DNA of 64,000 nucleotides from an uncultured virus (IMG/VR IMGVR_UViG_3300042507_002727) (IMGVR_UViG_3300042507_002727), one strand, 5' to 3'. Positions 1 through 15,898 are shown, counted from the stretch's first letter. Made by a program: numbers and translations. The notes: generated by a model not told the origin, from the letters alone.

Positions 1-622
1 ATTCGTCTTTGTCGTTTGAATAGTGATCTATCGTTCCGCCATACTTCATTGACATTACCTGGTCTGAAGCTGGAATAAAGAGATCATGTTTAACATTGAC
101 TAACTCTTTCATTCTATTATTTTGAAAGGCAAACTTTTCTATATGAGAGTACGGTCCATTACTTATCTCTACTCCATACATATGCTCTATTAGATCCTTT
201 GCGAACCAGGGCTGAATGATATAGCTACCCATTGCAGCGCGATCGTAGAATGTAATTCCGTAAAGATTGTTACACCAAAGTTTTGAAGGATCTTGTAATA
301 TGCAGTCGTGTTCGAGTATTAGAATAGGTTTGTTCGTAAAGACTGATTCTTGCCAGAGACGAAAATGACTGTAGAAGCATGCACGTTCTGTTTCGGTTAT
401 CTCAACCTTCAATCCTCTTACTACATACTTAGGAGAAGTAGAGTATTTTGCGAACTTTAGGTCTTTCTGTCTGTGTAACGTCTTTGGTGTTATCGCGTTA
501 AAGCGATTGACTGTGATCCCTACACTTTCCCAACTCGGCTTGCAATAATCGTGATAGTACTCAGACCTTTCGTCGTTCTCTATCACTATCATAAAACATG
601 ATATGTTTTTAAATATATCCAT
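1..622 (-). CDS. Glycosyltransferase family 25-like protein (partial, runs off window start)
   Basis: Not in the ORF track; translated by hand from ATG at 622: MDIFKNISCFMIVIE...VNRFNAITP...TERACFYSHFRLWQE...PILILEHDC, matching the GT25 pattern C-x-x-SH-x-x-LW...ILE-[DH]-D. The frame stays open to the window edge. Confidence 0.6.
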   Translation of the reverse strand, partial: MDIFKNISCFMIVIENDERSEYYHDYCKPSWESVGITVNRFNAITPKTLHRQKDLKFAKYSTSPKYVVRGLKVEITETERACFYSHFRLWQESVFTNKPILILEHDCILQDPSKLWCNNLYGITFYDRAAMGSYIIQPWFAKDLIEHMYGVEISNGPYSHIEKFAFQNNRMKELVNVKHDLFIPASDQVMSMKYGGTIDHYSNDKDE

Positions 623-1328
623 TTGATTTAAGATCTTTAAGTGGTCCTTGAGATTCTATAGCATGCTTATCGTAATCGCTATCTGTAATGTACTCCACCA
701 TATTAACCCACATGTCTCTATTGTGTATAACAAAGGCGATCGACAATCTGGCTTTCTTAGTTGAAGCTGCATGCCAGTACACTCTATTCGGTTCCTTGAC
801 TTCTGAAGGATAGTATCCGCACTTAACGTTCCAACCTGGCTTGTCATACATATACACTACTTCGTCTTTTTCTTTATCGTAGTACTTAAAGTGCCCATCG
901 CCGTCCTGGCTATATGAGAACAATACATTATATCCTGGAGCGTTACCGTTATGATGCCACCCGATGTAACCGTCGTCAGGATACAACATACATAGCGCGT
1001 TTTGTGCAGACCCAACGGTGTTCTGAAGACGCATTAACTTTTTTGCCACTAATTCGTGAAAGAAACTACTTTTATCAATGTCAGTACTTATGGTTCCTAT
1101 ACCTAACGCAGCTCTAGGATACGCAAAATCTTTTAATGGGTACTTTAATGCTTTTCTAAAATATGCATCGTCTACAGAATGTAAATCTGTAATTAGATTA
1201 TCTTTTTTTTCTTTACGTCTAGCTTCTTCAGATAGTCTTTTTATATTTTCTTCTTTAAAGACATCTTCAGTTATACCAGATAGAATTTTCGTCAGTCTTT
1301 GACTTTTTAGGCAAACTTCTTTCATCAT
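609..1328 (-). CDS. 2OG-Fe(II) oxygenase-like (double-stranded beta-helix) protein
   Basis: YPDDGYIGWHHN...YWHAA...RLSIAF gives a proximal His, a distal His and a 2OG-binding R-x-S; the usual HxD is HxN here. Confidence 0.55.
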   Translation of the reverse strand: MMKEVCLKSQRLTKILSGITEDVFKEENIKRLSEEARRKEKKDNLITDLHSVDDAYFRKALKYPLKDFAYPRAALGIGTISTDIDKSSFFHELVAKKLMRLQNTVGSAQNALCMLYPDDGYIGWHHNGNAPGYNVLFSYSQDGDGHFKYYDKEKDEVVYMYDKPGWNVKCGYYPSEVKEPNRVYWHAASTKKARLSIAFVIHNRDMWVNMVEYITDSDYDKHAIESQGPLKDLKSNGYI

Positions 1329-2094
1329 TCAATCCCTTCTGTAGTCTTTCATAAAAATGTGTCATATCCTTAGATCTCATGGATACCTTATCTATCTGAT
1401 ATACGATCGGACGTTTTCCATCGTATAGATCCTTTCCATCGTGTATCGTAGCGTTGTACACCTTTGGGCCTATCTTTATATTTAAGTTGTTAAATCGTTC
1501 AAACTCTTTCCATCTGCCGGAAGTTAGTCTCCAAAGAGTAAACATATCAAATATTTTCCAATCGGGCCAAGCGAAGTCGTATGTCCACGGTTCGGTTCTT
1601 TGTTTTAGATATTCATCGAACCACGTCTGCATAAAATCTATCGTTAGGTCTGTCTTTCTGTAACCGCAGACCGCACCATGATACTTTACTGGTATCTTTT
1701 GTTCCTTATCAAAGAAAGACCACTTATAGTTACCGGTTGTATACCAGTAACTCTCTGTGAAGAACATGTCGCAGTCTTTAATCTCGTCGAATACGTTCTT
1801 TATCTTACTGCTTACGATCTGCGAGTCTACGTCGTTGTAGAATGTATTCTCGTATGGAGTCCTTGCCATACACCACATCTTTGCTCGCTCGTGAACCGGA
1901 ATGCCGGTGATCACGTTATTAAAAATCTCTCTTGCTCTATCGTCAACCCAAGCTTCGTGAGTAAAGAGAGTTATGTGAGCGTTTCTATGCATTGTTCGAA
2001 GAGACTCTCCGGACAGCATGGCGAGTTCATAGAATAGTTTTTCTTTTGAAGCAACGTATATGAAACCATTTTCACTTTTTTCTACATCATTCAT
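1267..2094 (-). CDS. GT-A fold nucleotide-diphospho-sugar transferase-like protein
   Basis: GFIYVA N-terminal strand and K...TPYENTFYNDVDS with a DxD motif, typical of GT8/GT77-like proteins. Confidence 0.6.
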   Translation of the reverse strand: MNDVEKSENGFIYVASKEKLFYELAMLSGESLRTMHRNAHITLFTHEAWVDDRAREIFNNVITGIPVHERAKMWCMARTPYENTFYNDVDSQIVSSKIKNVFDEIKDCDMFFTESYWYTTGNYKWSFFDKEQKIPVKYHGAVCGYRKTDLTIDFMQTWFDEYLKQRTEPWTYDFAWPDWKIFDMFTLWRLTSGRWKEFERFNNLNIKIGPKVYNATIHDGKDLYDGKRPIVYQIDKVSMRSKDMTHFYERLQKGLNDERSLPKKSKTDENSIWYN

Positions 2095-2108
2095 AAATCA
2101 ATCTCATT

Positions 2109-2600
2109 TCAAGTTGTTTCGGCTTCTTCCTCGAGATCATCTAGGTAGTCTAGATAATCGTTGTAGTCCATACCCTGATTTTCCATAAACTTTCTCGTGA
2201 TATCTGTAACAATAAAGTCTAATACAGCTTTCGTTGGCGCTCTTCGTATTGCAGATTTTATATCTGTTCCTGCGTCACGAATAAATGGAAGTTCTAGGAC
2301 TTTTGTTTTTTCGTTGAAAAGAGTCTTAAGCTCTATGACTTTCTCTTGAGTCCTTCTCTTTTCGTCGGCGTGCTTTTTATGATTTCTCTGTTCCGCTTCG
2401 ATGCGGTTTCTTTTCTGACGCATTTCTTCGATATCAAATTCATCAACGATTCGATCCCAATACTTATTCACGCCTTTTCTTTTATTATTCGGAACAGTAA
2501 GTTCAGCAACGCTTTCGATTCCATCTTCACGTATTATCTTAAATCTTACTCTCGTCTTTTCCAAGTCTACATATTCAGGGTTTAGTATTTTTTCAACCAT
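2109..2600 (-). CDS. Hypothetical protein, possible assembly chaperone for the adjacent repeat protein
   Basis: 163 aa charged, helical ORF starting 3 nt after the stop of the Tyr-repeat gene; function inferred from position only. Confidence 0.45.
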   Translation of the reverse strand: MVEKILNPEYVDLEKTRVRFKIIREDGIESVAELTVPNNKRKGVNKYWDRIVDEFDIEEMRQKRNRIEAEQRNHKKHADEKRRTQEKVIELKTLFNEKTKVLELPFIRDAGTDIKSAIRRAPTKAVLDFIVTDITRKFMENQGMDYNDYLDYLDDLEEEAETT

Positions 2601-2603
2601 AAT

Positions 2604-5228
2604 TTAAAGAATCCTTCTCCAAAGAGTTTTCGTAGAGATTACTGAGCTATTATTATTTATTATCGATCCTGCATATGTACTCTGATAGTCTACAGCTCCA
2701 GCATAATCGTTTGGTACTGTAGAGTCATAATTTACCGTATCCGGGACGGCTGCAATGTATGTTGTAGTATATGCAGGACCATCATAAGAGCTAGTATAGC
2801 TGGATGGTAAAGGACTAGAGAAGACCCCACCTGTGACTCCTATGTAATCGGTAATATATGACAGGGTCCCAACATAAAACACTGGAGCAAATCCTACAAA
2901 TTGTCCTAGATATGTAGTTTCACTTATATACGACACCGGTCCAATACCAACGTAGTCTCCTAGATAAGCAACTGTGTTGTCATAGTTTGCCGCCGTCACT
3001 CCTAAGTAATCTATATCGTATGTTAACACTCCAACGTAGCTTGCGGGAGTCACACCGGCGTATTCACTCTCGTATGTAACAGATAATATATAACTGCCAG
3101 CATCTGGAGTTAATCCAGCGTAGTTGCCAAGATAGGCTATAACCGTATCATAAACCGCTCCATCTGGGTTTGTTCCGAGATAATCTGCAGCAATGAGCGC
3201 AGTATATAATACTTCCGGTATACCAATATATCCGGCTCCGTCTGGAGTAGTTCCTGGACCGATATATGTAGGGCCGTCAAGAGGGCCCAAGTAACTAACA
3301 TCAGGCCCGGCACCGAGATAGTTAACTGGTGCACCAGATCCAAGATAATTTATTGCGTTGTCTGACTCGTAGTTTATGGCATCCGGAGTCGCAGGACCTA
3401 CGTAGTTAATTGATGGTATGGAAGTATAATCTACGAAGTTTAGTTTTTGCGACCCTTGATAATCTTGGTTTCCTGGGCCTAAGTAGTTGGTATCCGCGCC
3501 AGGGCCGAGGTAGCTTGTAGCTGCACCAGGGCCGAGGTAGTTTGTAGCATTCGCCGGGCCAGGGCCAACGTATGATAATGTTTTGGTTCTCACGTACGTG
3601 ATGCCCGGCCCTGGCCCGAGATAGTTTATAGAATTCGCTGCGCCTGGCCCAACATAATTTATAGCATTCGCCGTGCCCGGGCCAAGATAGTTTGTGACGT
3701 TAGCAACTAACGAAGTGTAGTTCGCAGCAGGACCTCCTGGGCCAAGGTAGTTAACAGTTGTAATGTCTCCTAGATAGAAAGGTTCTGCGCTAGGACCTAA
3801 GTATAGAGGAAATAACGTATAGTTTGTAAAGTTTGCCGGGCCAGGACCAAGATAGTTTACGTTTGGGACTCCGGATTGAGATGCATAAGGAGCACCGTCC
3901 GTATCCGTAGATACATATAGAACTCCATCCAAAGGCCCAATATATGTGACTGGCGCAGAGGGTCCTAGATATGAAGCCGGAGTCGTTCCTGCATAGTTAA
4001 TAGAGTCCGCCAACGGACCAAGATAGTTAACTGTCACGAATCGAGTACTATCATAGGTAACCTCTGCAGGTCCAACGTATGTGACTGGACCAATAAACCC
4101 AGTCACATACGTGATAGGAGTGATACCAACGTACGTAGCTGGTCCTACATAATCTGCTACGTAAGTAGCCGGTGTAACGCCGACATAAGAAATAGGACCG
4201 ATGTAATCGCCGACATAGTTCGTTGGCGCAACTCCATCGTATACAATCCCGCCAAGATAGTCTCCATCGTATGTTGCAAAACCCGGACCTAGATAGTTTA
4301 TACCACTAGGCCCTTCAAAGGTGGTAGTGTATGCCGCCGGTGCAACACCGTCATAACCAACAATAACAGAAGAAACGTAATCAGTGTCGTATGTTCCTAT
4401 GTAATCTGTGTCATACGGTACGTCCGAACCGCCAAGATAGCTTATAGGAATAATACCGGTATAATTCACATCAGAAGTATATATCGGGCCTACATAATCT
4501 TGCGCAGATATCGTAGGTCTTGTGTCAAGGATAGTACCCATTTCAGCCCAAGTCCCTGGCGTTGGCGCAGCTAGCTGAAATGCATAGTAACCTATCTGTG
4601 TTGTTATAATTCTTTCTCTTACTTTTTCGACTAGCTGTTCTATTTCGGCCTGAGTCATGATCTGAATGGTTCCGCCAGATACATGTTTAAGAGGACTGTG
4701 TGTAAGAGTGGTAGTACCCGATATCTTTTTAAATAACGTGGTTACAGTAGTATTTGCTGTGTCTTGAACGTTGTTAATGCTTCCGATGGATACCCAAGTA
4801 CCTCCAGCCGGCGCGGCGCTTGTTAACACGTAACCACCTGGGCCATCTCCAATAACCATATATTGTATAATAGCATCGGCAAGATCGTTGAGCTCTGTAT
4901 TGTTCGCGATCTTAATATCAGTTCCGTTCCAATGTAATGGTGGATTCGTGACAGATCCGTAGTTACTCGTTCTATCCTGATAAAGAGTGTATGTTGTAGA
5001 AAGAAGTGTAACGTCTCCAGTTCCAATAGCTCCCTGATATCGTGTATCAGTGAAATCACCTATTGCTACATAAGCGGTGTTTGCACCTTGTGCGTTGTAT
5101 ATGTTACCGGGCCCGTCAACAGAAGCAAACTTTTCAAGAACAACTTCAGCGATCGCTTCAAACTCAGAGTCGTTTATGATCTGTAATATGCCACTGCCCT
5201 TATAGGTAAGGACATTTGGTCTTGCCAT
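2604..5228 (-). CDS. Putative virion fibre or appendage protein with long Tyr-x-Gly(-Pro) repeat region
   Basis: 874 aa: about 240 aa N-terminal region with internal repeats, then about 620 aa of NYLGP/SYVG-type repeats. Confidence 0.6.
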   Translation of the reverse strand: MARPNVLTYKGSGILQIINDSEFEAIAEVVLEKFASVDGPGNIYNAQGANTAYVAIGDFTDTRYQGAIGTGDVTLLSTTYTLYQDRTSNYGSVTNPPLHWNGTDIKIANNTELNDLADAIIQYMVIGDGPGGYVLTSAAPAGGTWVSIGSINNVQDTANTTVTTLFKKISGTTTLTHSPLKHVSGGTIQIMTQAEIEQLVEKVRERIITTQIGYYAFQLAAPTPGTWAEMGTILDTRPTISAQDYVGPIYTSDVNYTGIIPISYLGGSDVPYDTDYIGTYDTDYVSSVIVGYDGVAPAAYTTTFEGPSGINYLGPGFATYDGDYLGGIVYDGVAPTNYVGDYIGPISYVGVTPATYVADYVGPATYVGITPITYVTGFIGPVTYVGPAEVTYDSTRFVTVNYLGPLADSINYAGTTPASYLGPSAPVTYIGPLDGVLYVSTDTDGAPYASQSGVPNVNYLGPGPANFTNYTLFPLYLGPSAEPFYLGDITTVNYLGPGGPAANYTSLVANVTNYLGPGTANAINYVGPGAANSINYLGPGPGITYVRTKTLSYVGPGPANATNYLGPGAATSYLGPGADTNYLGPGNQDYQGSQKLNFVDYTSIPSINYVGPATPDAINYESDNAINYLGSGAPVNYLGAGPDVSYLGPLDGPTYIGPGTTPDGAGYIGIPEVLYTALIAADYLGTNPDGAVYDTVIAYLGNYAGLTPDAGSYILSVTYESEYAGVTPASYVGVLTYDIDYLGVTAANYDNTVAYLGDYVGIGPVSYISETTYLGQFVGFAPVFYVGTLSYITDYIGVTGGVFSSPLPSSYTSSYDGPAYTTTYIAAVPDTVNYDSTVPNDYAGAVDYQSTYAGSIINNNSSVISTKTLWRRIL
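2650..4500 (-). repeat. Coding repeat array (N/S/T/D)-Y-(L/V/I)-G-(P)
   Basis: Dozens of YxG units; densest NYLGPG copies at about 3300-4030, seen in DNA as recurring gggccnagrtag-type words. Confidence 0.85.
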
Positions 5229-5229
5229 A

Positions 5230-5397
5230 TTATACAGAACCCCAGACTACAGTTCCTGCCGCATTAAGGATCTTTAGAGTTCTATTTGAACTGTCCTGCA
5301 AATAAGTAATCACGGCAGTGTTTGAGGTTGCCGTGAGTATGTTTGTTATATTTCTGCTATCGTCAATAACGGTTGTTCCAGATATCTTAACAGCCAT
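5230..5397 (-). CDS. Small putative virion protein (55 aa)
   Basis: Hand-translated MAVKISGTTVIDDSRNITN...LKILNAAGTVVWGSV; AAGGAGA Shine-Dalgarno upstream and a late-promoter-like GATAAATA at 5430-5437. Confidence 0.65.
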   Translation of the reverse strand: MAVKISGTTVIDDSRNITNILTATSNTAVITYLQDSSNRTLKILNAAGTVVWGSV

Positions 5398-5442
5398 CTT
5401 CGCTCTCCTTTAGAACTATTAGCTGTATCTATTTATCACAAC

Positions 5443-6468
5443 TTATGTCTTTAGCCATCTTTCGTTCTCTAGAGTCCACTTTACTACTTCTGCAATTCTT
5501 TCGCGGACTGAAGTGGCTGGTTCCCATCCAAGACTCTTCATCTTGTTTCCGTCTAGGGCATAGCGAAGATCGTGGCCTGGGCGACTCGAGTGAAAGTCGA
5601 CAAACTCGTAGTTGAGTTCCTTACCTTGCGCGTCTGCGATGATCCTTGCAAGTTCGTAGTTATCGATCTCTTCTGCGCCGACGATGTTAAACTTGGGGCA
5701 CTTAGCTCCACCCCATTCTTCCTTTAGATCAAAATTCCCATTTAGTAAGAATAAAACTGCATCTGCTACATCTTCTGCGTGGATGTAGTGACGTGATCCC
5801 GGGATCGTCTTTGTTCTATCGCTATGGATTGTAATCTTCTCGCCATCACGAGCTTTCTTGATGCACATTGGTATGTACTTCTCCGGGTGTTGTCTCTGAC
5901 CAAAGACGTTCATAGTATGAGTGATATAGATCGGCAAGCCGTAGGTATTCTCATACGCAACAGCAAGTTCTTCGCCGCCTGCTTTTGATGCGCTATAAGG
6001 ATTCGTAGAGTTATAGCGATCGTTTTCACCATACTTAATTCCATCCGGCGCAGGACCAAAGACTTCATCGGTACTGAAGTAGATGAACCTCTTAAGATTG
6101 CTCTTTTGCGCTCTTGCAAATTCGAGAATGTTACACGTTCCGACAACATTATCAAGAACGAACTCCATCGGATAGTCGATAGAACGATCAACATGTGACC
6201 CTGCTGCAAGGTGAGCGATGTAGTCTACGGATCCTACTTCTGAACGAACGAGTGGGTTCATGTCGGCCTTCAGGTCGTGAAATACCACGCTTACTCTCTT
6301 ACGAGTTTCGGCGTCGAACTCCTGTAGTGAGTCGTGGAGGCGATTCAAGTTTCCACTGTAGTCCAATCTATCTAGAGTAACTACCTCCCAATCCGTCTCT
6401 TTGAGCACTTTACATACGAGGTGGTGGGCAATAAAACCGGCTCCGCCAGTGATTAATATTCTTTTCAT
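5443..6468 (-). CDS. rmlB: NDP-glucose 4,6-dehydratase (RmlB/RfbB-like SDR)
   Basis: MKRILITGGAGFI, HLAAGSHVDRSI, STDEVFG, YSASK, RPGHDLRYALD; start corrected to ATG at 6468 with AAGGA upstream. Confidence 0.9.
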   Translation of the reverse strand: MKRILITGGAGFIAHHLVCKVLKETDWEVVTLDRLDYSGNLNRLHDSLQEFDAETRKRVSVVFHDLKADMNPLVRSEVGSVDYIAHLAAGSHVDRSIDYPMEFVLDNVVGTCNILEFARAQKSNLKRFIYFSTDEVFGPAPDGIKYGENDRYNSTNPYSASKAGGEELAVAYENTYGLPIYITHTMNVFGQRQHPEKYIPMCIKKARDGEKITIHSDRTKTIPGSRHYIHAEDVADAVLFLLNGNFDLKEEWGGAKCPKFNIVGAEEIDNYELARIIADAQGKELNYEFVDFHSSRPGHDLRYALDGNKMKSLGWEPATSVRERIAEVVKWTLENERWLKT

Positions 6469-6491
6469 AATGTATTCCTTTTCATTGTATG

Positions 6492-6516
6492 AAGAAGCGG
6501 GCAATGCCCGCTTCTT
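6492..6516. terminator. Intrinsic terminator-like hairpin
   Basis: AAGAAGCGGGC-AAT-GCCCGCTTCTT perfect inverted repeat between the TctC-like gene and the dehydratase gene. Confidence 0.7.
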
Positions 6517-6526
6517 TTCTATATGA

Positions 6527-7354
6527 TTACTGCACCTGACTTTGGTAGGCAGACACTTCTTTCTGTATAGCTTCGAGCTGTGCTTCTCTATCGAGTAATG
6601 AAAGCTCACGACTATATGTGTTAAACATTTCTTTCCAAGAATCTGAAGAGGTAGAATCGTTTAAAACCTGCTTCATCTCTTCTAGATCAACATTTACTCC
6701 AAGGAATGCGAACTTCATACCGGCTGTAGAGAAGACGTCATCACTGTAATTAACTAGCGGTGTAATTTCAGTGCTGTTTGGATCTGTAGTCAGCACGCAG
6801 CTCATAATATCGCTTGGCTTGGTCGTATAGACAAAGTCTATCTCGTCTATTTCAAAAGCTGCCATATATTCATTCGCGCTCTTATACGGAATGATCGTAG
6901 CATTACTCTGTACTGCTTTTACATTATTTTCTAAAGATAACTTGTATAGAAAATCAATAGCATAACCTATCTTTGCGTTTCCGTTTATAAAGTATTCGAG
7001 ATCTTTACCGGAATCTTTCTTTGTGCAGATATAGTTATACGAAGAGATGTGAACAGTGATAAAATTATCTTTTGTGAGTGTTTCCTTACATTCTTCACTT
7101 GCTGAAAAAGGTTCTGCAATTGGCTGCCATATTACTATGGTTGGGTTAGTCTCAGTTTTAAGAATGCTTGCTGCTGTGGCACAGGACTCTACTTTTTCTA
7201 CACTTCCAAAAAGAGAAGGGTTTGACTCGTGTAGATAGTTTCCTAGTTTAAAGGCAGCTCCGGTTGGATTGTATGGATTTATGATGCGAACTAATTCGTT
7301 TGCGTAGAGCGGTGTAGAAATCATCATAAAGAGCGCTGTGATGTATTTAATCAT
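6527..7354 (-). CDS. TctC/Bug-like periplasmic solute-binding protein (divergent)
   Basis: Signal peptide MIKYITALFMMISTPLYA, then IINPYNPTG resembling the TctC IVPF-x-PGG motif, plus IPYKS; directly downstream of a tctA-like gene. Confidence 0.6.
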   Translation of the reverse strand: MIKYITALFMMISTPLYANELVRIINPYNPTGAAFKLGNYLHESNPSLFGSVEKVESCATAASILKTETNPTIVIWQPIAEPFSASEECKETLTKDNFITVHISSYNYICTKKDSGKDLEYFINGNAKIGYAIDFLYKLSLENNVKAVQSNATIIPYKSANEYMAAFEIDEIDFVYTTKPSDIMSCVLTTDPNSTEITPLVNYSDDVFSTAGMKFAFLGVNVDLEEMKQVLNDSTSSDSWKEMFNTYSRELSLLDREAQLEAIQKEVSAYQSQVQ

Positions 7355-7362
7355 ATTTTACC

Positions 7363-8694
7363 TCATAAGTATAGAGCGTTGAATGTCATTATGCTGTAGT
7401 ACAGCATGTCGTGAAGCAGAAATGCAAAGACTATTGGTGTTCTATCGTAACTCTTGAGCAGATAACCAATTGGTATCAAAGCTATAAGAAGTACTACATA
7501 GTACACGGACTGACCATACATAGATCCAGTAATATACGCGACGACAAAGAGCATCGCAATAATAAAGATATATATGTATCTAAAGTCTATCCTTGAAAAA
7601 ACTCTTATCCAATTTACATACTTTCCTGCTATGAATACGCCGATAATCGCGCTAAGCATATAGACAACCATCATATAAGGAAGCATGTGATAGAAGAAGT
7701 TTGTTGTTATATGTATTCCTTTACTCTCGACTATACTATATATAAAAGATTGTGTACTAGTAATTGGAAGACCTACGAGAAATAAAGGAATTATTTGTGA
7801 AAAAACACCTGCGTTGTTTGCAGTCTCGGCCGCAACAAGACAGTCTATATCACCAACCTGATACTTGTTTTGTTTCTTTTTTATTCTTTTTTCGAGTAGA
7901 TACGCAAGTGTTGTTCCAAGATGATACGTAACTCCTGGTATAAACCCGGATACATAACCTATCAAGAATCCACGAACTACAACTCCCCAATGTTGTAACA
8001 TATTCTTAAACGACACAACATAACCTGAAAGTTGCAACTTATTCATCACTATCTTTCTTGAGCCTACTTCAAGTTGATCTAGGATATACGGTATTACGTA
8101 TATTCCTAAGACGACACTGATTGTAGGAAGCCCGCTTAACAGATAATTGTTACCAAATGTAAGAAATGCGGTGTTTGTATTTTTATCCATCCCGACGTGC
8201 GCTAAGATAAAACCCAAGATTATAAATGCGCAACTGATCCAGTACTTATTCTTACTCACTACTATAAATGCTATTAGACACAGAAAAGTAAGCAGCATTT
8301 TTATGCGCGTATCAAACATAGAGAACATATAGTAACTATACTGAATAAAGATGTACGACACCATGATAGAGAGAAGAGATCCTATGAAGCTTCCTATCGC
8401 TGCATACATTATTGCCCTATCACCATCTCCACGACGAAACAATTCGTGACCTTCGATTAACGAAGGAATGGATGTCATAGAACCAGGGACAGCAAAGATA
8501 GTTGCTGACACAGATCCAAAGTATTGGCTCAGGCTTGCAACTACTACATATACTGCTAACGCGTTTGCTGGGTCAATTCCCATTAGAAACGGATACATTA
8601 GAGACAGCGTCACAAACACGGACACTCCTGGTATCAATCCGGACAAGACGCCAAAGAAGGTCGCAACAAGAAAAGAAACAACCATTTCTATCAT
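7363..8694 (-). CDS. tctA: Tripartite tricarboxylate transporter large membrane subunit, TctA family
   Basis: Multi-pass hydrophobic 443 aa protein with GLIPG, YFGSVSATIFAVPG, EGH...GDGDRA, GFIPG and AAETANNA signature motifs. Confidence 0.85.
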   Translation of the reverse strand: MIEMVVSFLVATFFGVLSGLIPGVSVFVTLSLMYPFLMGIDPANALAVYVVVASLSQYFGSVSATIFAVPGSMTSIPSLIEGHELFRRGDGDRAIMYAAIGSFIGSLLSIMVSYIFIQYSYYMFSMFDTRIKMLLTFLCLIAFIVVSKNKYWISCAFIILGFILAHVGMDKNTNTAFLTFGNNYLLSGLPTISVVLGIYVIPYILDQLEVGSRKIVMNKLQLSGYVVSFKNMLQHWGVVVRGFLIGYVSGFIPGVTYHLGTTLAYLLEKRIKKKQNKYQVGDIDCLVAAETANNAGVFSQIIPLFLVGLPITSTQSFIYSIVESKGIHITTNFFYHMLPYMMVVYMLSAIIGVFIAGKYVNWIRVFSRIDFRYIYIFIIAMLFVVAYITGSMYGQSVYYVVLLIALIPIGYLLKSYDRTPIVFAFLLHDMLYYSIMTFNALYL

Positions 8695-8695
8695 T

Positions 8696-9868
8696 TCAAC
8701 TATCTCTTAACTCTAAAGTGGATTTTCTTATGTATATGGACCTAGAAGGAATCGAATTTAATGTTTTATTTTCTTCATCTATGTATCTTGCGTCAACTCT
8801 TCTAGATATTTCTTCTTCAAAGAAATGCTGAGTTTCTCGAATAATTCCAATCTTTTCTCTTTTTAAATGAAGATGTTTTAACCATCCGGAATAATCTGGA
8901 CTCGCTCTCCAATAATTTCCATTCAATACATGACTCAAGGCTTTATATCCCATTGATTCATTTATAAGTGTATAGTAAGAACTAGAAAAGTGTTGAACTT
9001 CACTCACAAGTTTTTCTGCTTCGCTCTTACTAATATTTCCACGTGCCTTGACAATACTTTCAATCGCTGATATCTTAAGCCACGCGAGCTTTATCTGTAT
9101 TTCTGGGACGTCGTCAGTAGAGAAAAAGAAGATTGTATCGTAGTCATTAGATGATGGAGTATCATATTGCCACCACATTCCAGAATTAGTAGCCCAAAAC
9201 CAATCTCCGTTTACCAAAGTTACACGAGGTTTTTCTAATCCCCATATCATACAAGATCGCGGTTTAGTCTTATTCACTCTCTTGTGTCTTGAGTGATATT
9301 GGCCTATAGATTCCGGTAACTTAACCATAGTACGATAATCACCTACGAAATTCTCAAGAGCAAGTCTCCATTCTGCCGGGTCGTTTGGTGCAAGATAATT
9401 CGGTTTGTCTAAACCTTCTACCGTGTAGTTGAGTTGCTTTAACTTCTCGCTGTATTTACTCATAAGAGTATCACGAATCTGTCCAAAGAGTTTTATTTTT
9501 GGATTAAAATCTTCGAAACCAAACCCGGCTCTATGCCAAAGTTTAACATTTCTTATACCTTCATCTATAAATGCATCGAGTATTGTATGACTATCAGTTC
9601 CTCCACTGTAGTGAATCGTAATGTCATCATACTTTTCCGCAAGGATTCTTGCGTGCTTCCTGAAATAGTCTTTAGATTCAAGAAGAGGTTCTACTCTCCA
9701 TGCCTGCGGATTACGATACACGTCATAGTCAAGAACAAACTCTATCCTAGAGTCTCTTCTCTTACTTGCTTCTGAAAATGCTTCTACGTTATTATAAAAC
9801 TTAGATCCGTTCGCGAGAAAGTAGAAGTTTGGTTTTGAAGAAGGAATATCGCGAAATAAATTTATCAC
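8696..9868 (-). CDS. PP-loop (adenine nucleotide alpha-hydrolase superfamily) protein
   Basis: ITIHYSGGTDSHTILDAF contains the SGGxDS PP-loop; GTG start. Confidence 0.65.
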   Translation of the reverse strand: MINLFRDIPSSKPNFYFLANGSKFYNNVEAFSEASKRRDSRIEFVLDYDVYRNPQAWRVEPLLESKDYFRKHARILAEKYDDITIHYSGGTDSHTILDAFIDEGIRNVKLWHRAGFGFEDFNPKIKLFGQIRDTLMSKYSEKLKQLNYTVEGLDKPNYLAPNDPAEWRLALENFVGDYRTMVKLPESIGQYHSRHKRVNKTKPRSCMIWGLEKPRVTLVNGDWFWATNSGMWWQYDTPSSNDYDTIFFFSTDDVPEIQIKLAWLKISAIESIVKARGNISKSEAEKLVSEVQHFSSSYYTLINESMGYKALSHVLNGNYWRASPDYSGWLKHLHLKREKIGIIRETQHFFEEEISRRVDARYIDEENKTLNSIPSRSIYIRKSTLELRDS

Positions 9869-9880
9869 AATTCAATAAGT

Positions 9881-12853
9881 CTACTTTTTCTCAACTTCGT
9901 CTAGACGAGCAGATAGCTCCTTTACAGCTTCAATAAGAACGGCTGTTATGTTACCATACGCTACTGATTTATATTCACCTATGTCATGAACTACTTCTGG
10001 GAGTATCTTTTCAACTTCCTGCGCGATCACACCTACGTTCTGCTTTCCGTCTCTTTCGAAATACACACCTCTCATTAGATCAACTTTTTCAAGAGCGCTA
10101 TCGATTGTGCGAATATTCGTCTTAAGTCTTTCATCAGAATAAGCTGTTACGTTTCCACCGACGGCTAGGTTTCCGGTTGATGGTTGGAATGAGAACGCTG
10201 TGGCTGTAGTTCTTACTCTTGCTGTTTGGTCGCTTCCAGAACCGGCAACAAAGACTGGGTAGTGAACCGTAGAAGACGTCGAGTCTGCTGCATTGATTGT
10301 GCTAGATGGTCCGGCCAAGCCTTGTGTACCAGTAGTTCCTTGTCTACCTTGAATGCCTTGCGAACCGTTCAATCCGTTCGATCCTAGAACACCCGCGGTA
10401 CCTTGTACACCAGTACTACCCGCTGTTCCGGTCAATCCTTGAGAACCGGATCCTGTTGTACCTTGTCTCCCTTGAATACCCTGAAGCCCTTGTCCGCCAG
10501 TTGTTCCGGTTAATCCTTGAGAGCCAGACCCTGTTGTACCCTGTGTACCTAGAGTACCTTGAATGCCTTGAGTACCTTGACGACCTTGGAAGCCTTGCGC
10601 TACTGCTCCACCGTCTTGACCTTGAATACCTTGGCTTCCTTGGAAGCCTTGAGCAACTGCACCACCATTGAGACCTTGAATACCTTGACTACCAGCTCCG
10701 CTAATGCCTTGTGTACCTTGTCTACCTTGGAAACCTTGGACAGTACCGGCAGTACCTTGGAAACCTTGGTTACCTTCTCCAGGTATACCTTGGACGCCCT
10801 GTCTTCCCTGGAAACCTTGCGCTGCGGCAGCACCAGTAAGACCTTGGATACCCTGATTACCGGTTCCAGCAATACCTTGAGTACCCTGGTTACCTTGGAA
10901 ACCTTGGAATGTAGCTGAGCCGCTAAGACCTTGGATACCAAACGTACCTTGAATACCTTGTGAACCAGTTGCACCAGTTGCACCCGATCCAGCAATACCC
11001 TGGAACCCTTGCGTACCCTGTCTTCCCTGGAACCCTTGCGTACCTTGAATACCTTGATCGCCGCTAGCACCAGTTGCGCCTGTTCCTACAAGACCCTGTA
11101 GTCCTTGGCCACCCGTTGTACCTTGCCTACCCTGGAAACCTTGAGCGGCGACTACACCTGCAATACCTTGATTTCCCTGAGTGCCGGTTCCAGAAATGCC
11201 TTGCCCGCCTTGCCTACCTTGAATACCTTGAGCAGCCACAGCTCCTTCAATGCCTTGGTTTCCAAGTCTACCTTGAAGACCTTGCGTGCCTTGAATACCT
11301 TGAGCAGCCGCGGCTCCTTCAATGCCTTGGTTTCCAAGTCTACCTTGAAGGCCCTGGAATCCTTGTGTTCCAGTTCGACCTTGGATACCTTGCGCAGCTG
11401 CCTGTCCGGCAAGACCTTGATTACCAAAAGTTCCTTGCAAACCTTGAAGACCTTGAGAAGCAGCAGCGCCAGTCGCACCTTGAATGCTAATTCCTTGAGC
11501 GCCTTGGATACCAAGCGTACCTTGAATACCTTGATTGGCGGCTGCGCCGGCCTGTCCTTGTAAACCTTGGGTTCCAATTCCCTGTATACCTTGTATACCT
11601 TGTCTACCTTGGCTTCCCTGTATACCTTGAAGACCTTGGATACCTTGAGTACCTTGTCTTCCTTGTGTTCCCTGTATACCCTGAAGACCTTGAGTTCCTT
11701 GAGTTCCCTGTGTCCCTTGACGACCTTGCGTACCCTGAGGACCTTTGATCTGGCCTCCGTTTGTCCACGTAGTTCCGTTATACGCCCAAACATCTCCTTC
11801 CAACTCGTCTATAACTGCATCTCCGGCAGTTGCGCTTGGAAATGCTGCGTTTAGAGTAGTCTGTGGATTGTTAGGCGGAGCTACGTTTACGTCTGCAACA
11901 GAACCGATAAGATTAATGGATGGACCGATAAGACCTTGTATACCTTGACGTCCCTGTGTTCCCTGCAGTCCTTGTATACCCTGAGTACCTTGAATACCCT
12001 GAAGACCTTGAGTTCCTTGTGTACCCTGAAGACCTTGAGTTCCTTGAGTTCCTTGACGACCCTGTGTACCCTGAAGACCTTGAATACCCTGTGATCCCTG
12101 GGTGCCTTGTGTCCCTTGCGGTCCTTGAATACCCTGATTGCCTAAAGAACCCTGAATACCTTGAACACCTTGTGAGCCAGCAGCACCAGTTGCACCTACA
12201 CCCTGAATACCCTGCAGACCTTGCGATCCTTGAGTACCCTGCCGACCTTGAGTACCTTGGGTTCCTTGTCTACCTTGAGTACCCTGAGTTCCAGTTTCGC
12301 CTTGTAAACCTTGCCCGCCTTGTCTACCTTGAGTACCCTGTGTACCTTGGTTACCCTGACGACCTTGGTTACCTTGGTTACCCTGAACTCCTTGCGGTCC
12401 CTGCGGTCCCTGAATACCCTGTGTACCTCTAAACGGGCCGAGGTTTAACCAATCGTCATTTCCGATATAAGCCCATAGTTCATCTAATGCCTGGTCAACA
12501 ACCGTATCGCCAACTAGCGCTGATGGAAAGAAAGCTGAAAGAAGGCCGTCTGGGTTGGTGTTAGCATTTACATCTGCGACCTCACCGATGATTTTAATCG
12601 CAGGGCCAAAGTTACCTTGTACACCTTGTACTCCTTGTGGACCTTGTGGACCTTGAAGACCCTGGACTGATATCCCGATTTCTATCCAATCAGAACCATC
12701 AGAATAGTACATAATACTAGTGTTTGAAGAATCTGTGTTTGCATAAACAATCGAGCCTTCGTATACACCAGGATCTAGAGCGATAGGGTAGGACTGCCTA
12801 ATACCGGGTCCTATTATAGGTGTTCTTCCTCTTACTGTCTTAAGCGACATCAT
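9881..12853 (-). CDS. Collagen-like tail fibre with C-terminal peptidase S74 intramolecular chaperone
   Basis: Long G-X-Q triplet runs, two related globular interruptions, C-terminal YSDERLKTNI...GVIAQEVE...YGNITAVLIEAVKEL. Confidence 0.88.
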   Translation of the reverse strand: MMSLKTVRGRTPIIGPGIRQSYPIALDPGVYEGSIVYANTDSSNTSIMYYSDGSDWIEIGISVQGLQGPQGPQGVQGVQGNFGPAIKIIGEVADVNANTNPDGLLSAFFPSALVGDTVVDQALDELWAYIGNDDWLNLGPFRGTQGIQGPQGPQGVQGNQGNQGRQGNQGTQGTQGRQGGQGLQGETGTQGTQGRQGTQGTQGRQGTQGSQGLQGIQGVGATGAAGSQGVQGIQGSLGNQGIQGPQGTQGTQGSQGIQGLQGTQGRQGTQGTQGLQGTQGTQGLQGIQGTQGIQGLQGTQGRQGIQGLIGPSINLIGSVADVNVAPPNNPQTTLNAAFPSATAGDAVIDELEGDVWAYNGTTWTNGGQIKGPQGTQGRQGTQGTQGTQGLQGIQGTQGRQGTQGIQGLQGIQGSQGRQGIQGIQGIGTQGLQGQAGAAANQGIQGTLGIQGAQGISIQGATGAAASQGLQGLQGTFGNQGLAGQAAAQGIQGRTGTQGFQGLQGRLGNQGIEGAAAAQGIQGTQGLQGRLGNQGIEGAVAAQGIQGRQGGQGISGTGTQGNQGIAGVVAAQGFQGRQGTTGGQGLQGLVGTGATGASGDQGIQGTQGFQGRQGTQGFQGIAGSGATGATGSQGIQGTFGIQGLSGSATFQGFQGNQGTQGIAGTGNQGIQGLTGAAAAQGFQGRQGVQGIPGEGNQGFQGTAGTVQGFQGRQGTQGISGAGSQGIQGLNGGAVAQGFQGSQGIQGQDGGAVAQGFQGRQGTQGIQGTLGTQGTTGSGSQGLTGTTGGQGLQGIQGRQGTTGSGSQGLTGTAGSTGVQGTAGVLGSNGLNGSQGIQGRQGTTGTQGLAGPSSTINAADSTSSTVHYPVFVAGSGSDQTARVRTTATAFSFQPSTGNLAVGGNVTAYSDERLKTNIRTIDSALEKVDLMRGVYFERDGKQNVGVIAQEVEKILPEVVHDIGEYKSVAYGNITAVLIEAVKELSARLDEVEKK
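10320..12670 (-). repeat. Collagen-like Gly-X-Gln triplet repeat (9-nt periodic ccttg motif)
   Basis: Recurring accttg/ccctg every 9 nt; near-identical duplication with 72-nt period starting at 11221 and 11293. Confidence 0.9.
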
Positions 12854-13265
12854 CCTGCTCCGCTTGTCCTATTGTGTAGGATATTGTTACATTTACTGAC
12901 CCATTTATAGATGCTTTTACATCAACCGTGTCTCCAGTGTATATGAACTGACCGTTTAATGGAAGTGGAAGAACATCAAACGCAGGAACTGGTAGTTCGT
13001 TAGCTATTATGAATGACGTGTTAGAACTTGCTCTGTATATTCTTACGCTTACATCTACAGTCTGAACATCAATATTAGTGATAATCATTGGACTGATAAT
13101 TTCTGCCACCCCGGGAACGACGACGGTGTCGCCGCCGAATACTAATTCGGGTACTTCAAAACTAGGAACTTCAATAATAGTCTCCCAGTCGTCAGTTAAG
13201 GTTACGCTTAGACCAATTGGCTTTGCGTCAGGCGCTTGGCTTGTTGTAACTATGCTATATGTCAT
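12840..13265 (-). CDS. Putative virion structural protein (beta-rich, 141 aa)
   Basis: Overlaps both neighbours in the fibre operon; alternating hydrophobic beta pattern. Confidence 0.5.
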   Translation of the reverse strand: MTYSIVTTSQAPDAKPIGLSVTLTDDWETIIEVPSFEVPELVFGGDTVVVPGVAEIISPMIITNIDVQTVDVSVRIYRASSNTSFIIANELPVPAFDVLPLPLNGQFIYTGDTVDVKASINGSVNVTISYTIGQAEQDDVA

Positions 13266-15826
13266 ATTGATGCCCTACTTTGCGAAGCTCTACGAGCTAG
13301 TTTTCTAACAGATGATGTGAATGGCCTTCCTTCAATTCTTCCGGTACGACCGTTAATTTTAAGACCTCTAGCGAAGTACTGGTTATTTAGTTCGTCGGCT
13401 CCAGACCAACGTACTCTTCCACCATCTTCTTGAAGAACAGATGCAGCGGCTGATATAGGCTGGCCAAGTCTTCTGAAGTTAAGTGGAAGCGCGTTAACGT
13501 TAACGCCTGCACTTGCGAGGTTAAACTGGTGTGAGAGACTCTCTACGAGGCTACCGAAACGAAGAATGCGAGGATTTCTTAAGCTTGCTATGAGGACGTC
13601 ATCTACAAGACCGTCAACCATATTTTCTTCTGTGGCGGTTAGTGTAAAGTTTATCTTAATATAGTCACCCATATGAGTAAACGAATCTGTAAAGGCGTTA
13701 AGAAGAGTTATATCATTTGGCCCGTCGTTAGTCCACGCAGATCCATCCCAGTAGTAGACGTCTCCGTCATAGATATTTGATACACTGGTATATACAACAT
13801 ACGCATCATTTACTTCTACCGTAACTCCACTAGGTAGAGCTCCAACAGTAGCTACGCTTCCTATGTATCTTAAGCCATCGGTGTTTGGATTAAACACCGA
13901 GAATACATGTCTTCCTTCATAATTAAAGAGGCCAGCTGTAAATATACGAGTTCCTGTTTGTGTACCTTCACGAAAATCGTTTGTGATAGAACGTATAAAG
14001 TTTAGAGCATCTCTACGAGTAAGTTCTTCGTTTACAGTGTTTGCAGAATACCCTTCAGTGATCGTTAGATAGTCCCACATGTCGTCTATGATTGTGTTTG
14101 CGCCTGCGAGTATTTCATCTGCAAGACCGTCGTTCTCTACAAGAGTAGCGGTCGTTAATCTAGGGTTTTGGACCGGAGTAGATCCCTTCGCGCGCATAGA
14201 TATGTCGCCGAACTGAGTACCAGAGTTGTTTAGAGTAATCTGACCGCCGTTTAGAGAATAGAACGCACAGCGCGAGAAGATGGAAAGAGAGCTGATGCCA
14301 TTAATACCTGCGCCATTCTTCGCAACATAACCCAAACCATTCTGAGTTCTAGGTGTAACACCAAAGCAAAGTATGTATGGGAAGATTGAGTCTTGGTCGA
14401 CTAATGCTCGGTCTGCGAGTACAGTCCCCCCACCTCTTCCTACTTCTTTGTTAGGATAGTCTTCTTCTAGAACTGCATCAATGATAGCCGTTCCGCCGGA
14501 TGAAGATGTAATGAGTGACCCAACTTCAAGATCATCGCTATTGTTTCTGATGTATATCGTTCCAGATCCAATCTCGGTGACTCTTGACACATATCCTGTT
14601 ACGCCGTTGTTAGCCGTAACTAGGTCGTCAACTTCCCAAGTTCCGGTAACTCCGGTAACTTCTACCTCGTATCCTAGATCCTCAATTGTACCACGGCTGT
14701 TGAATGGATTTAATAGAGGAGGGATCTCTCTTCCAAAGTAGTTCGCTATCTGACTGCAGTCTCTTAAATATGGCGAACGAATGATTTTAGCACCAGGGCG
14801 GAACGAAAAAGCGAACCCTTTAGACGGATAGTCAAAGTTATCAACAATATTATTAAAGAAAGAAAAACCTTGAACATAGCAGCCAGATCCTATGAGTATG
14901 ACGTTTTCTCTTTCGTATCCAGGGTTCTGAATGATACGAGTTGCATACTGTCCGTTTGTCGACACCATCGTGCAACGATCCGGAAGAGAAAGGTTTCCGT
15001 TTGTGTAATAGTCGCCAGGAAAAACGGTAATCGCCGTTGGGATGCCTGGGCTGTTATCTCCAGGATAACCAGAAGGTATACCACCGGCCGCAGCTTCTTG
15101 TGCAAGTTCGAATGCCCGCGCGAGAGTTGCAACTGGCTTTAGATAACTTCCTGGGTTCGTATCATCTCCATCAACACCGACGTATACTTTGTTTGCTTTC
15201 TTTGCGGTTTTAGATATCTCTTTGTATAGATCCTCGTAAGAGATCGCGACAGTTCTGCCTAAAGAAACGTCCTTAAGATAGAAGTAATCCGTATTTGATA
15301 TGTCAGGAGCAAATGCTTCATCAACGTTAATGTTCGGGTCGTTTATTGTTGAGTCATTTATGATCCCGTCGTTTATAGTGGAATCATTTATAATTGCGTC
15401 GTTTATAGTTGAATCGTCTATGATAACGTCTGTTAGTATCGATGCGTTAATAAACGACGCATTCATAGTTGAAATGTTAATGACGGATGATTCCATCGTA
15501 GAGTTCGTGATATCGGATTCGTCTATGTCAGAGTTATTAATATCCGAGTTATTCAACACCGACGTATTGATAGTCGAGTTGTTCATCGTAGAAGTGTTGA
15601 TGACCGAGCCCGTAATCGTTACGTTTGTAAGCGGGATGTTTTGAATATAATCGCCGCCATTAATCTTTATATTAGTAAAAACTTCTTGCTGAATAGCTTT
15701 TACTAGTTCGGCACGAGTAATATTCTTCGTGCCGTCGTCGCCCTGATCGAGGCTGACAGTTACAAACAAGTCTCTGGATTTTGTATTACCGCCGGTAATT
15801 TTACCAAGTTCGGATATTTTAGACAT
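13262..15826 (-). CDS. Virion structural or fibre protein with pentapeptide repeat and beta-helix-like region
   Basis: MSKISEL fibre-like N-terminus, (I/M)N(D/N)S(T/D) 5-residue repeats, VYVGVDGDDTNPGS...PVATLARA pectin-lyase-like start motif. Confidence 0.6.
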   Translation of the reverse strand: MSKISELGKITGGNTKSRDLFVTVSLDQGDDGTKNITRAELVKAIQQEVFTNIKINGGDYIQNIPLTNVTITGSVINTSTMNNSTINTSVLNNSDINNSDIDESDITNSTMESSVINISTMNASFINASILTDVIIDDSTINDAIINDSTINDGIINDSTINDPNINVDEAFAPDISNTDYFYLKDVSLGRTVAISYEDLYKEISKTAKKANKVYVGVDGDDTNPGSYLKPVATLARAFELAQEAAAGGIPSGYPGDNSPGIPTAITVFPGDYYTNGNLSLPDRCTMVSTNGQYATRIIQNPGYERENVILIGSGCYVQGFSFFNNIVDNFDYPSKGFAFSFRPGAKIIRSPYLRDCSQIANYFGREIPPLLNPFNSRGTIEDLGYEVEVTGVTGTWEVDDLVTANNGVTGYVSRVTEIGSGTIYIRNNSDDLEVGSLITSSSGGTAIIDAVLEEDYPNKEVGRGGGTVLADRALVDQDSIFPYILCFGVTPRTQNGLGYVAKNGAGINGISSLSIFSRCAFYSLNGGQITLNNSGTQFGDISMRAKGSTPVQNPRLTTATLVENDGLADEILAGANTIIDDMWDYLTITEGYSANTVNEELTRRDALNFIRSITNDFREGTQTGTRIFTAGLFNYEGRHVFSVFNPNTDGLRYIGSVATVGALPSGVTVEVNDAYVVYTSVSNIYDGDVYYWDGSAWTNDGPNDITLLNAFTDSFTHMGDYIKINFTLTATEENMVDGLVDDVLIASLRNPRILRFGSLVESLSHQFNLASAGVNVNALPLNFRRLGQPISAAASVLQEDGGRVRWSGADELNNQYFARGLKINGRTGRIEGRPFTSSVRKLARRASQSRASI

Positions 15827-15850
15827 GGTTGTCGAGATCCCTTTTTCTTT

Positions 15851-15858
15851 TATTTATA
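15851..15858 (-). promoter_or_regulatory. T4-type late promoter TATAAATA
   Basis: Exact gp55-dependent consensus about 25 nt upstream of the 854 aa structural gene. Confidence 0.8.
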
Positions 15859-15898
15859 TCGAAGAAATACCAACATGATATTTAGAGAACAAAGAGTT

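Follow-up and report, generated by a model that had tools for sequence, protein, structure and literature searches.

A probable phage fibre-like protein with a mirrored tyrosine-glycine array nested in one hairpin of its base

Introduction

Phage fibres decide host range, and to our knowledge nearly all of those known are parallel trimers (collagen-like, coiled-coil or triple beta-helix). The gene described here raises the question of whether a long phage protein can also be built as one chain that runs out from a base domain and back to it. The gene lies at positions 2604 to 5228 on the minus strand of a 64,000-nucleotide stretch of DNA (the window) from an uncultured virus (IMG/VR IMGVR_UViG_3300042507_002727). 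The open reading frame (ORF) is open throughout and its product, P0001, has 874 amino acids, including 90 tyrosine, 109 glycine and 99 threonine residues.

We predict, with a probability of roughly 60%, that P0001 combines a conserved prism-like base with a nested Tyr-x-Gly array, which would form two in-register antiparallel beta arms and a distal middle part that contacts the host. It is probably a new kind of adjustable fibre and can be described as a fibre-like phage protein with a nested distal part.

A base domain closed by the C-terminal strand

The N-terminal region of P0001 contains three units, A (residues 6-86), B (97-170) and C (179-241), that are similar to one another by pairwise blastp (B to C, 30.5% identity over 59 residues, E 9e-9; A to B, 23.6% identity over 72 residues, E 1e-5; no hit between A and C). 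An AlphaFold2 model, made with a 137-sequence family alignment, places residues 1-246 (predicted local distance difference test score, pLDDT, mostly >90) and the C-terminal strand 851-872 (pLDDT 86-98) in one confident domain. Each unit has one helix and one hairpin (Table 1), the hairpin of unit C being made of residues 227-246 and 851-872; the strand ends given here are DSSP boundaries and were not read from the coordinates. The N-terminal part of unit C ends with a conserved G-T-W...D-T-R motif, and the C-terminus of the protein (...STKTLWRRIL) resembles the closing strands of unit A (TTYTLYQD) and unit B (TVTTLFKKI). The same closure is predicted in P0152, a relative of 540 amino acids that is about 33% identical, where residues 255-274 pair with 517-538.

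We therefore agree with the initial annotation that the N-terminal region holds three similar units and that the extreme C-terminus is the partner of the third. The blastp matches and predicted hairpins bear out the first point. For the second, the strand packs on the N-terminal domain in the models of two family members and is conserved in 137 of 158 stored relatives. Because the C-terminal strand completes unit C, the whole Y-x-G array is nested in one hairpin, and an out-and-back course of the chain, with the array held inside the opened hairpin of unit C, is well supported. The base, about 245 N-terminal residues plus the last 22 or so, is modelled as one compact pseudo-threefold prism of helix-plus-hairpin units.

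Conservation across the family follows this division. An exhaustive phmmer search recovered 262 cluster representatives at E<=1e-3, 41 of them at <=1e-30. The 137 stored proteins that retain the closing strand start with methionine, end in L-[WY]-x-[RKE]-x-x (most commonly TLWRRIA) and range from 252 to 1601 amino acids in length, and the remaining 21 mostly look truncated. L869 is invariant, and conservation reaches at least 90% at W870, at R872 and in the G-T-W...D motifs of the units. Across the family, identity in the base of about 240 residues is 30-48%, and the insert varies from about 30 to about 1340 amino acids (605 in P0001). A conserved anchor with a hypervariable distal part is thus found here, a pattern typical of receptor-binding proteins. 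The protein atlas returned solely viral hypothetical clusters for this family, which is large, widespread, viral and unannotated, and comes from T4-like and related myoviruses. The titles and abstract openings listed by a literature search on phage fibres and beta-prisms do not describe it.

Spacing and alternation in the array

Aromatic residues in the array are spaced 4, 6 and 8 residues apart, four times over, in residues 320-392 (nucleotides 4053-4271), and 6, 4 and 10 or 8 apart, about six times over, in residues 693-803 (nucleotides 2820-3152), which is the opposite cyclic order. Between the two periodic stretches the spacing is 8-11, in NYLGPG-type units. The initial annotation had described a 4-6-8 cycle going out (about 4070-4220), an 8-6-4 cycle coming back (2840-3150) and NYLGPG repeats at the centre; this description is correct, and its intervals fall inside the ranges given above. 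Both arms use the same blocks, an 8-mer (Y-x-G-V-T-P-A-x), a 6-mer and a 4-mer, in the same order counted from the base. The period is made up of unequal 4+6+8 blocks that each begin with Y-h-G. Chiral spacing trigrams common to the two halves of P0001 are reversed in 15 cases and direct in 3. When the block lengths of the outgoing arm are compared with the reversed returning arm, the longest common subsequence is 21 of 29 (17 for the direct comparison); shuffling of the block lengths gave a mean of 16.4 and a maximum of 20, and none of 5000 shuffles reached 21.

The arms also show a strict alternation with a two-residue step. In the outgoing arm (residues 250-392) the counts at even and odd positions are 24 and 1 for aromatics, 17 and 5 for Gly, 0 and 12 for Pro, and 0 and 14 for Asp/Glu. 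The returning arm (655-815) has 2 and 25, 4 and 18, 9 and 1, and 11 and 3, respectively, and is therefore a parity-inverted image of the outgoing arm, as an odd sum of paired residue numbers demands. The centre (393-654) shows no preference (19 and 13, 20 and 17, 13 and 17, 8 and 7). Family-wide, in blocks of 4, 6 and 8 residues, Gly favors the aromatic parity (2116 vs 538), and Pro (214 vs 596) and acidic residues (255 vs 1151) avoid it. This alternation is consistent with continuous extended strands in both arms. One face would then carry Tyr and Gly and the other Pro, acidic and aliphatic residues, and by standard beta-sheet geometry the Pro positions would be those whose NH faces the free edge of a two-stranded ribbon. 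Acidic residues prevail strongly in the array: residues 246-850 contain 48 Asp/Glu, 4 Arg/Lys (net charge about -44) and no His.

The two arms match in register

Four features of P0001 share one mirror constant, i+j = 1097, for residues i and j on the two arms. The confident strands of the base end at residues 246 and 851 (AlphaFold2 and DSSP). At this constant there are 15 exact aromatic pairs, 13 of them consecutive (320-384 with 713-777). Two of the four basic residues of the array, R547 and K549, lie at the centre, 548.5. Finally, the only two DNA tandem arrays of the gene encode residues 512-540 and 557-585, which are equal in length and exact mirror images in position (512+585 = 540+557 = 1097). 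The distance from Y245 or Y852 to the periodic region is 75 residues on either arm.

Relatives of P0001 with very different inserts show matched arms as well. P0005 and P0017 share a tip domain (65% identity, two Cys), which is flanked by arms of 170 and 164 amino acids in P0005 and of 51 and 43 in P0017. In P0152 the block lengths run 4x15, 8, 4, 8x5, turn, 8x5, 4, 8, 4x16, and in P0111 they run 13,13,13,8,13 ... 13,8,13,13,13; in both proteins the odd-sized block is equally distant from the base on the two arms. Among four close relatives (80-89% identical) all insertions and deletions fall in residues ~489-598, around the tip, and one of these close relatives, P0003, lacks 11 residues on each side of it.

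The tip domain of P0005 (residues 407-527) and P0017 (288-407) is a non-repetitive segment of about 120 amino acids at the centre of the Tyr array. It has no match in Pfam. The two Cys bracket the domain and form a possible disulfide at its neck.

We scanned 112 proteins over ±60 residues for the constant that maximizes aromatic-aromatic coincidence. With ties resolved toward zero, the optimum equals the value predicted from the base in 19 proteins (0.9 expected) and lies within ±1 of it in 32 (2.8 expected). A repeat scan over ±40 residues, from which 12 base-proximal residues per arm had been removed, placed 16 of 61 proteins within ±1 when only unique maxima were counted (2.3 expected) and 16 of 99 when ties were resolved away from zero (3.7 expected). 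In a mirror test of 98 inserts against circular shifts, a control that preserves the run structure of each array, the mean percentile was 0.67; the top decile contained 26 inserts and the bottom one 5 (Wilcoxon p 2.5e-7, which is optimistic since the sequences are related). Smoothed aromatic density gave a modest family signal (mean z 0.47; 11 of 82 above 2). A mirror test at ±2 tolerance was dropped because its null was too high (22.9/30). We consider it well supported that the arms are length-matched and mirror-ordered in P0001 and in many relatives.

Evidence against in-register arms, and alternative folds

A number of observations weigh against this prediction. The exact aromatic matches of P0001 peak at i+j = 1115 (21 pairs) and not at 1097 (15 pairs). 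The two values are one 18-residue period apart, so the exact count alone leaves the register unfixed, and we dropped it as a means of fixing the register, given its ambiguity by multiples of 18. In the 124 inserts from outside the P0001 clade, direct spacing triplets outnumber reversed ones (419 vs 279); only the P0001 clade shows mirror order of chiral triplets. Taken alone, the aperiodic proximal blocks of P0001 are not significantly palindromic (8/13, a value reached by 1447 of 5000 shuffles). More than half of the family has no register peak at the predicted value, and the arms of P0133 resemble direct duplicates whose irregular blocks lack mirror order. The initial annotation had named as a check whether the arms of homologues change length together, as they do in P0005 and P0017 and in P0152 and P0111. 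P0001 has no match in Pfam (E<=1) or among the PHROGs, and tblastn of P0001 and the short relative P0157 against 50,697 phage records found no family member (other subfamilies were not queried). The fold match of the base to known structures is middling (Z 5.6-7.3, a range that the calibration of the tool, VIA-align, calls common).

Structure prediction adds further points on the same side. The AlphaFold2 model of P0001 has 515 of 874 residues at pLDDT <50, including most of the array. Order appears there only as solenoid-like coils, in which residues 320-413 form a strand every 18 residues (pLDDT 52-60); residues 434-520 of P0152 are likewise coiled with a 16-residue period (pLDDT 58-68). Superposition of the coils finds leucine-rich repeat (LRR), bactofilin, CAP and pentapeptide solenoids as the nearest solved folds (Z 4-7.5, root-mean-square deviation 2.1-3.6 Å). 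Monomer prediction, which the initial annotation had named as a check, thus supports the closed base with confidence and leaves the array mostly below pLDDT 50 or coiled. In both models one arm is coiled and the other is unstructured, and in the repeats the family alignment cannot be relied on (4216 columns for 874 residues). For these two reasons the coils are weak evidence for a solenoid and do not refute a ribbon. A parallel solenoid, which the initial annotation had named as an outcome that would refute its reading, thus keeps some probability. A complex prediction of residues 300-400 with 690-810 from 4-row alignments scored 0.00 against a mark of 0.32, and as it had no controls it counts neither way.

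The best of the alternatives, which we consider unlikely, keeps the same nesting and makes each arm a beta-solenoid with coils of about 16-18 residues, either as two solenoids side by side in opposite directions or as an interleaved two-start helix, and so predicts a short, thick object. Besides the predicted coils and their superposition on solved solenoids, it is favored by the 18-residue period, which is that of known triangular beta-helices, and by the Y-[VIL]-G motif, which puts hydrophobic residues on both faces and would suit a buried core. An interleaved two-start coil would also need the mirrored 4-6-8 and 8-6-4 order. However, independent solenoids side by side need only equal total length and not mirrored blocks, and the strict Tyr, Pro and acidic parity over 140-160 residues is required of a continuous strand and optional in a solenoid. 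The coils reach a pLDDT of only 52-68, AlphaFold2 favors solenoids for periodic sequence, and coiling of one arm fits poorly with arms that match residue by residue. P0001 also has no Pfam pentapeptide or hexapeptide match.

The Tyr/Gly face, 140-160 residues long, would need to be buried, and this could be achieved in a homotrimer or other oligomer whose hairpins come together as a closed tube of several strands around a Tyr/Gly core. We regard this arrangement as improbable. The gene that directly follows P0001 encodes a 163-amino-acid protein of unknown function, and the position right after a fibre gene often holds a fibre chaperone. A precedent would be the distal needle of T4 gp37, which is nested in collar domain D10 and has a core filled by seven His-coordinated irons (PMC6957217). 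No sequence relation links P0001 with gp37-type fibres, and its array is free of His. Its base is already a pseudo-trimer in one chain, which makes further threefold assembly less necessary, and Pro, which occurs about twice per 18 residues at positions of the other parity than Tyr, would suit a free edge better than a closed barrel.

The least probable alternative is a disordered, low-complexity Tyr/Gly/Thr loop that is tethered at both ends and acts as a sticky brush, perhaps glycosylated: it is in line with the low pLDDT of most of the array in both models (mean 0.40 for the whole protein in the Atlas model), with the G, Y, T, V, P, A composition and charge of the array, with the likely glycosyltransferase genes conserved downstream and with the [ST]-Y-[ST]-G arrays of relatives, which resemble known phase-separating low-complexity domains, but it would not require residue-exact equal arm lengths, mirrored irregular blocks, length-matched tandem arrays around the centre or an alternation confined to the arms.

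Genomic setting

The window comes from a virus record of 217,966 bases, complete according to CheckV. Its PHROG matches are of the T4-like myovirus type and include, in addition to the genes in Table 1, a tail tube cap, clamp loader, family-B DNA polymerase, SbcCD-like nuclease and helicase. The polymerase shares only about 45% identity with those of Synechococcus T4-like phages, and a megablast search of window positions 1-20000 against the 50,697 phage records found no match; together these results indicate an uncultured lineage. The source of P0001 is an uncultured T4-like marine phage.

The P0001 gene is at the downstream end of a fibre cluster, and genes for baseplate, hub and tail fibres precede it on the same strand. 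In all five scanned IMG/VR loci of relatives, the family gene is preceded by matches to a baseplate wedge (phrog_438), phrog_358 and/or tail-fibre PHROGs. In the window and in these five loci the gene is therefore placed in the tail/baseplate module, as expected for tail fibres and receptor-binding proteins.

Table 1. Features of the P0001 gene and its surroundings in the 64,000-nucleotide window
Feature	Residues	Positions	Strand	Evidence or remark
239-amino-acid neighbour, unknown function		609..1328	-	E 3e-29 to 3e-37, 5/5 loci
275-amino-acid neighbour, possible glycosyltransferase		1267..2094	-	27-43% identity, E 7e-18 to 5e-38, 5/5 loci
163-amino-acid protein		2109-2600	-	directly downstream of P0001
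P0001, whole gene		2604..5228	-	874 codons + stop; 262 relatives at E<=1e-3
C-terminal closing strand	851-874	2607..2678	-	...STKTLWRRIL, pairs with 227-246; AlphaFold2 pLDDT 86-98
Proximal end of returning arm	816-850	2679..2783	-	block lengths mirror residues 245-320
Returning arm	655-815	2784..3266	-	includes 8-6-4 repeat 693-803; spacing, parity
Distal central region	393-654	3267..4052	-	NYLGPG-type units; spacing, insertions and deletions, parity
DNA tandem array, 27-nucleotide unit x 3.2	557-585	3475..3560	-	mirror of 33-nucleotide array
Predicted turn/tip	Y545-VRTKTLS-Y553	3570..3596	-	putative; R547 and K549 at centre 548.5
DNA tandem array, 33-nucleotide unit x 2.5	512-540	3610..3693	-	outgoing side of tip
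Outgoing arm	250-392	4053..4481	-	includes 4-6-8 18-residue repeat 320-392; spacing, parity
Base unit C, N-terminal part	179-246	4491..4694	-	helices 193-210, outgoing strand 227-246; blastp, AlphaFold2
Base unit B	97-170	4719..4940	-	helix 110-126, hairpin 144-154/160-170; blastp, AlphaFold2
Base unit A	6-86	4971..5213	-	strand, strand, helix 20-36, hairpin 54-64/75-84; blastp, AlphaFold2 pLDDT 83-97
Sugar epimerase/dehydratase gene		5443-6609		between the 990-amino-acid fibre and P0001, like the TctA gene
TctA-family tripartite tricarboxylate transporter membrane protein		7363-8694	-	Pfam E 1.5e-69
990-amino-acid collagen-like fibre with C-terminal Peptidase_S74 chaperone domain		9881-12853		Pfam Collagen 3.5e-74
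Further collagen-like/S74-chaperone tail fibre region		15899-16921		same strand and late-gene cluster as P0001
Baseplate wedge subunits		22387-27980		PHROG matches
Hub/lysozyme		29966-31828		PHROG match

Downstream of the family gene, an ORF of about 150 amino acids, a homologue of the 275-amino-acid protein and a homologue of the 239-amino-acid protein follow in 5/5 loci (L003, L004, L007, L008, L010). The 275-amino-acid family has an invariant D-x-D, and the atlas neighbour of the window protein is annotated as 'nucleotide-diphospho-sugar transferase' (0.97), which serves as a lead only. The protein has no Pfam or PDB match; with its D-x-D it is a possible GT-A glycosyltransferase. The 239-amino-acid family has invariant W-H...H...R residues, and the window protein has no match in Pfam, PHROG or PDB. 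Glycosyltransferase genes follow these conserved genes in the window (where a GT25 glycosyltransferase gene lies further downstream of P0001) and in L008. Given the invariant D-x-D, the atlas lead and these glycosyltransferase genes, modification of the array is worth considering, and the downstream proteins may carry it out.

The small ORF directly downstream is weakly conserved, and only that of L010 matches the 163-amino-acid protein of the window (E 2e-9). A Pfam match of the window protein to the C-terminal part of HSP70 stays below threshold (E 0.0054; 15.4 bits vs a cutoff of 20.6); it is possibly due to chance and, if real, would hint at a chaperone.

Several other genes of the tail region were noted. 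The TctA-family gene is an unusual auxiliary gene for a T4-like phage to carry within its fibre-gene region, and it adjoins the sugar epimerase/dehydratase gene. An ORF of 854 amino acids on the minus strand (13262-15826), between two fibre genes, encodes another large unannotated protein, with no PHROG match and a sub-threshold pentapeptide-repeat match (E 6e-4). The 1759-amino-acid protein encoded at 17097-22376 on the minus strand matches phrog_358 (E 1e-279, unknown function). In L004 and L008 the phrog_358 region is split into two adjacent ORFs of ~1340 and ~530 amino acids, just upstream of the family gene.

A model for the nested fibre

In our preferred reading, that of a conserved base with nested in-register arms, the proximal ~145-160 residues on each side would form two antiparallel beta arms. 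Tyr would lie opposite Tyr on one face, with Gly between, and Pro, Asp/Glu and aliphatic residues would occupy the other. The middle ~260 residues, made of NYLGPG units, would fold in another way and make up the distal end, with R547/K549 as its basic tip. Attachment to the virion, in the tail or baseplate region, is the most likely role of the base, and contact with the host surface that of the variable distal part; this functional reading draws on the position of the gene, the context of its relatives and the pattern of a conserved anchor with a variable tip. Length would be adjusted as the two arms gain or lose repeats in a matched way. Both chain ends of these proteins lie in the anchor and the predicted receptor end is mid-sequence, with an insert length that spans a roughly forty-fold range. 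Annotation rules that assume a C-terminal receptor-binding domain would thus look for the binding region of this family in the wrong place.

The chance that the array represents a new fibrous fold is real. More tentatively, and as a possibility that we would put below even odds, this fold may be a single-chain, two-stranded antiparallel 'tyrosine-glycine zipper' ribbon that grows from one hairpin of the pseudo-trimeric prism. Each arm would be hundreds of residues long (~300 in P0001 and ~670 in a relative of 1601 amino acids), with Tyr-Tyr pairs across the strands, Gly providing space for the rings and Pro on the free edges blocking sheet growth. The likely GT-A glycosyltransferase and the 239-amino-acid protein, conserved downstream, may modify the ribbon. 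Matched repeat gain and loss would then provide a simple ruler for reaching through host surface layers. For long thin proteins such a ribbon would represent a new structural principle; it would also be a natural case of palindromic repeat evolution under a pairing constraint and a simple scaffold for showing a tip domain at a chosen distance. The initial annotation had already proposed an antiparallel fibre with a tyrosine ladder. The nesting, the matched and mirrored arms and the alternation agree with that proposal and the AlphaFold2 models show no ribbon, so that the tyrosine-ladder ribbon is plausible but unproven.

Comparison with known fibres and folds

Foldseek found no match at E<=0.001 for the P0001 model in the PDB or for the P0152 model in BFVD. 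In exhaustive VIA-align comparisons the same four beta-prism entries ranked at the top for the base in both models: the MABP domain of MVB12B (3tow), the C-terminal domains of Plu-MACPF (2qp2) and Mp2Ba1 (8b6v), and the P2 domain of perforin-2/MPEG1 (6sb1). The Z values in this order are 7.3, 7.2, 6.7 and 5.8 over 112-119 residues for P0001, and 6.1, 6.2, 5.6 and 4.9 over 115-123 residues for P0152. The family profile found nothing at E<=1 among PDB sequences. We consider the base to be MABP-like in predicted fold, with membership unproven. Pseudo-threefold internal symmetry, as modelled for the P0001 base, would be common to it and the MABP-type prisms. P0001 differs in having no sequence relation to them (no Pfam match at E<=1 and no PDB sequence match by profile), in the additional alpha-helix borne by each unit, and in a hairpin that is one to two orders of magnitude longer and built of Tyr-x-Gly repeats. 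The context is also different, as P0001 is encoded in a phage tail gene cluster and the MABP prisms are found in pore-forming toxins or ESCRT.

In PMC6753088 one hairpin of the MPEG1 prism is called an 'extraordinary elongated beta-hairpin', whose tip has basic and hydrophobic residues and binds membranes. In P0001 the corresponding elongation would be ~300 residues per side, with R547 and K549 at the centre. The MPEG1 MABP prism is thereby the closest precedent for the overgrowth of a single prism hairpin.

We also considered the base as a single-chain version of the T4 gp10/gp11/gp12 collar, and rejected this as unsupported. The unit motif A-P-x-x-G-T-W-x-x-x-G (P0001 residues 214-231 and 126-170) resembles gp11 residues 180-197 (S-K-P-G-Y-G-T-W-N-L-L-G), with P-G-x-G-T-W in common. 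The resemblance is not significant: hhalign of the family profile with T4 gp11 gave a probability of 0.5% over 18 columns, and VIA-align gave Z 2.1-2.5 for gp11-type baseplate chains, with 22-24% identity over 42-45 residues.

The fibres encoded by the same phage are, like P0001, long, repetitive and rich in Gly and Pro. They have G-X-Y collagen triplets and a C-terminal Peptidase_S74 domain, both of which P0001 lacks, and unlike them P0001 has both termini in the proximal domain. P0001 has no hit to Pfam Collagen, for which the neighbouring 990-amino-acid protein scores 3.5e-74. Beta-solenoid proteins (MfpA, 2bm4; bactofilin, 2n3d; LRR) resemble the array in its coil-sized periods of 16-18 residues, and tandem repeats of coil length, 18 residues, are present about four times in residues 320-392 and six times in 693-803. 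The mirror order and matched length of its two halves set the array apart from a single parallel solenoid.

The T4 gp37 needle is similar in overall course. Its distal part is nested in a collar, domain D10 being made of residues 811-881 plus 1010-1026, and the chain leaves the proximal collar, reaches a distal receptor-binding tip and returns (PMC6957217). Both proteins come from T4-like myoviruses, with a variable, host-binding distal tip (predicted for P0001), and in P0001 as well the N- and C-terminal segments form the proximal domain, a likeness of architecture only and not of homology. The gp37 protein is a homotrimer whose stem is held by seven irons coordinated by His, and P0001 has a single-chain pseudo-trimeric base and neither a His in residues 246-850 nor His-x-His iron sites along its stem. 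It has no sequence or PHROG relation to gp37, and its nested part is about five times longer and repetitive.

P0001 is without the defining sequence features of the gp37, MABP, solenoid and collagen-like fibre families. The initial annotation called it unlike collagen or triple beta-helix fibres; as a statement on known fibres in general this needs qualification in two respects, as the nested D10 of gp37 (PMC6957217) and the elongated hairpin of MPEG1 (PMC6753088) are already known. Of the known architectures the gp37 needle comes nearest, and of the known folds the MABP prism is the nearest to the base.

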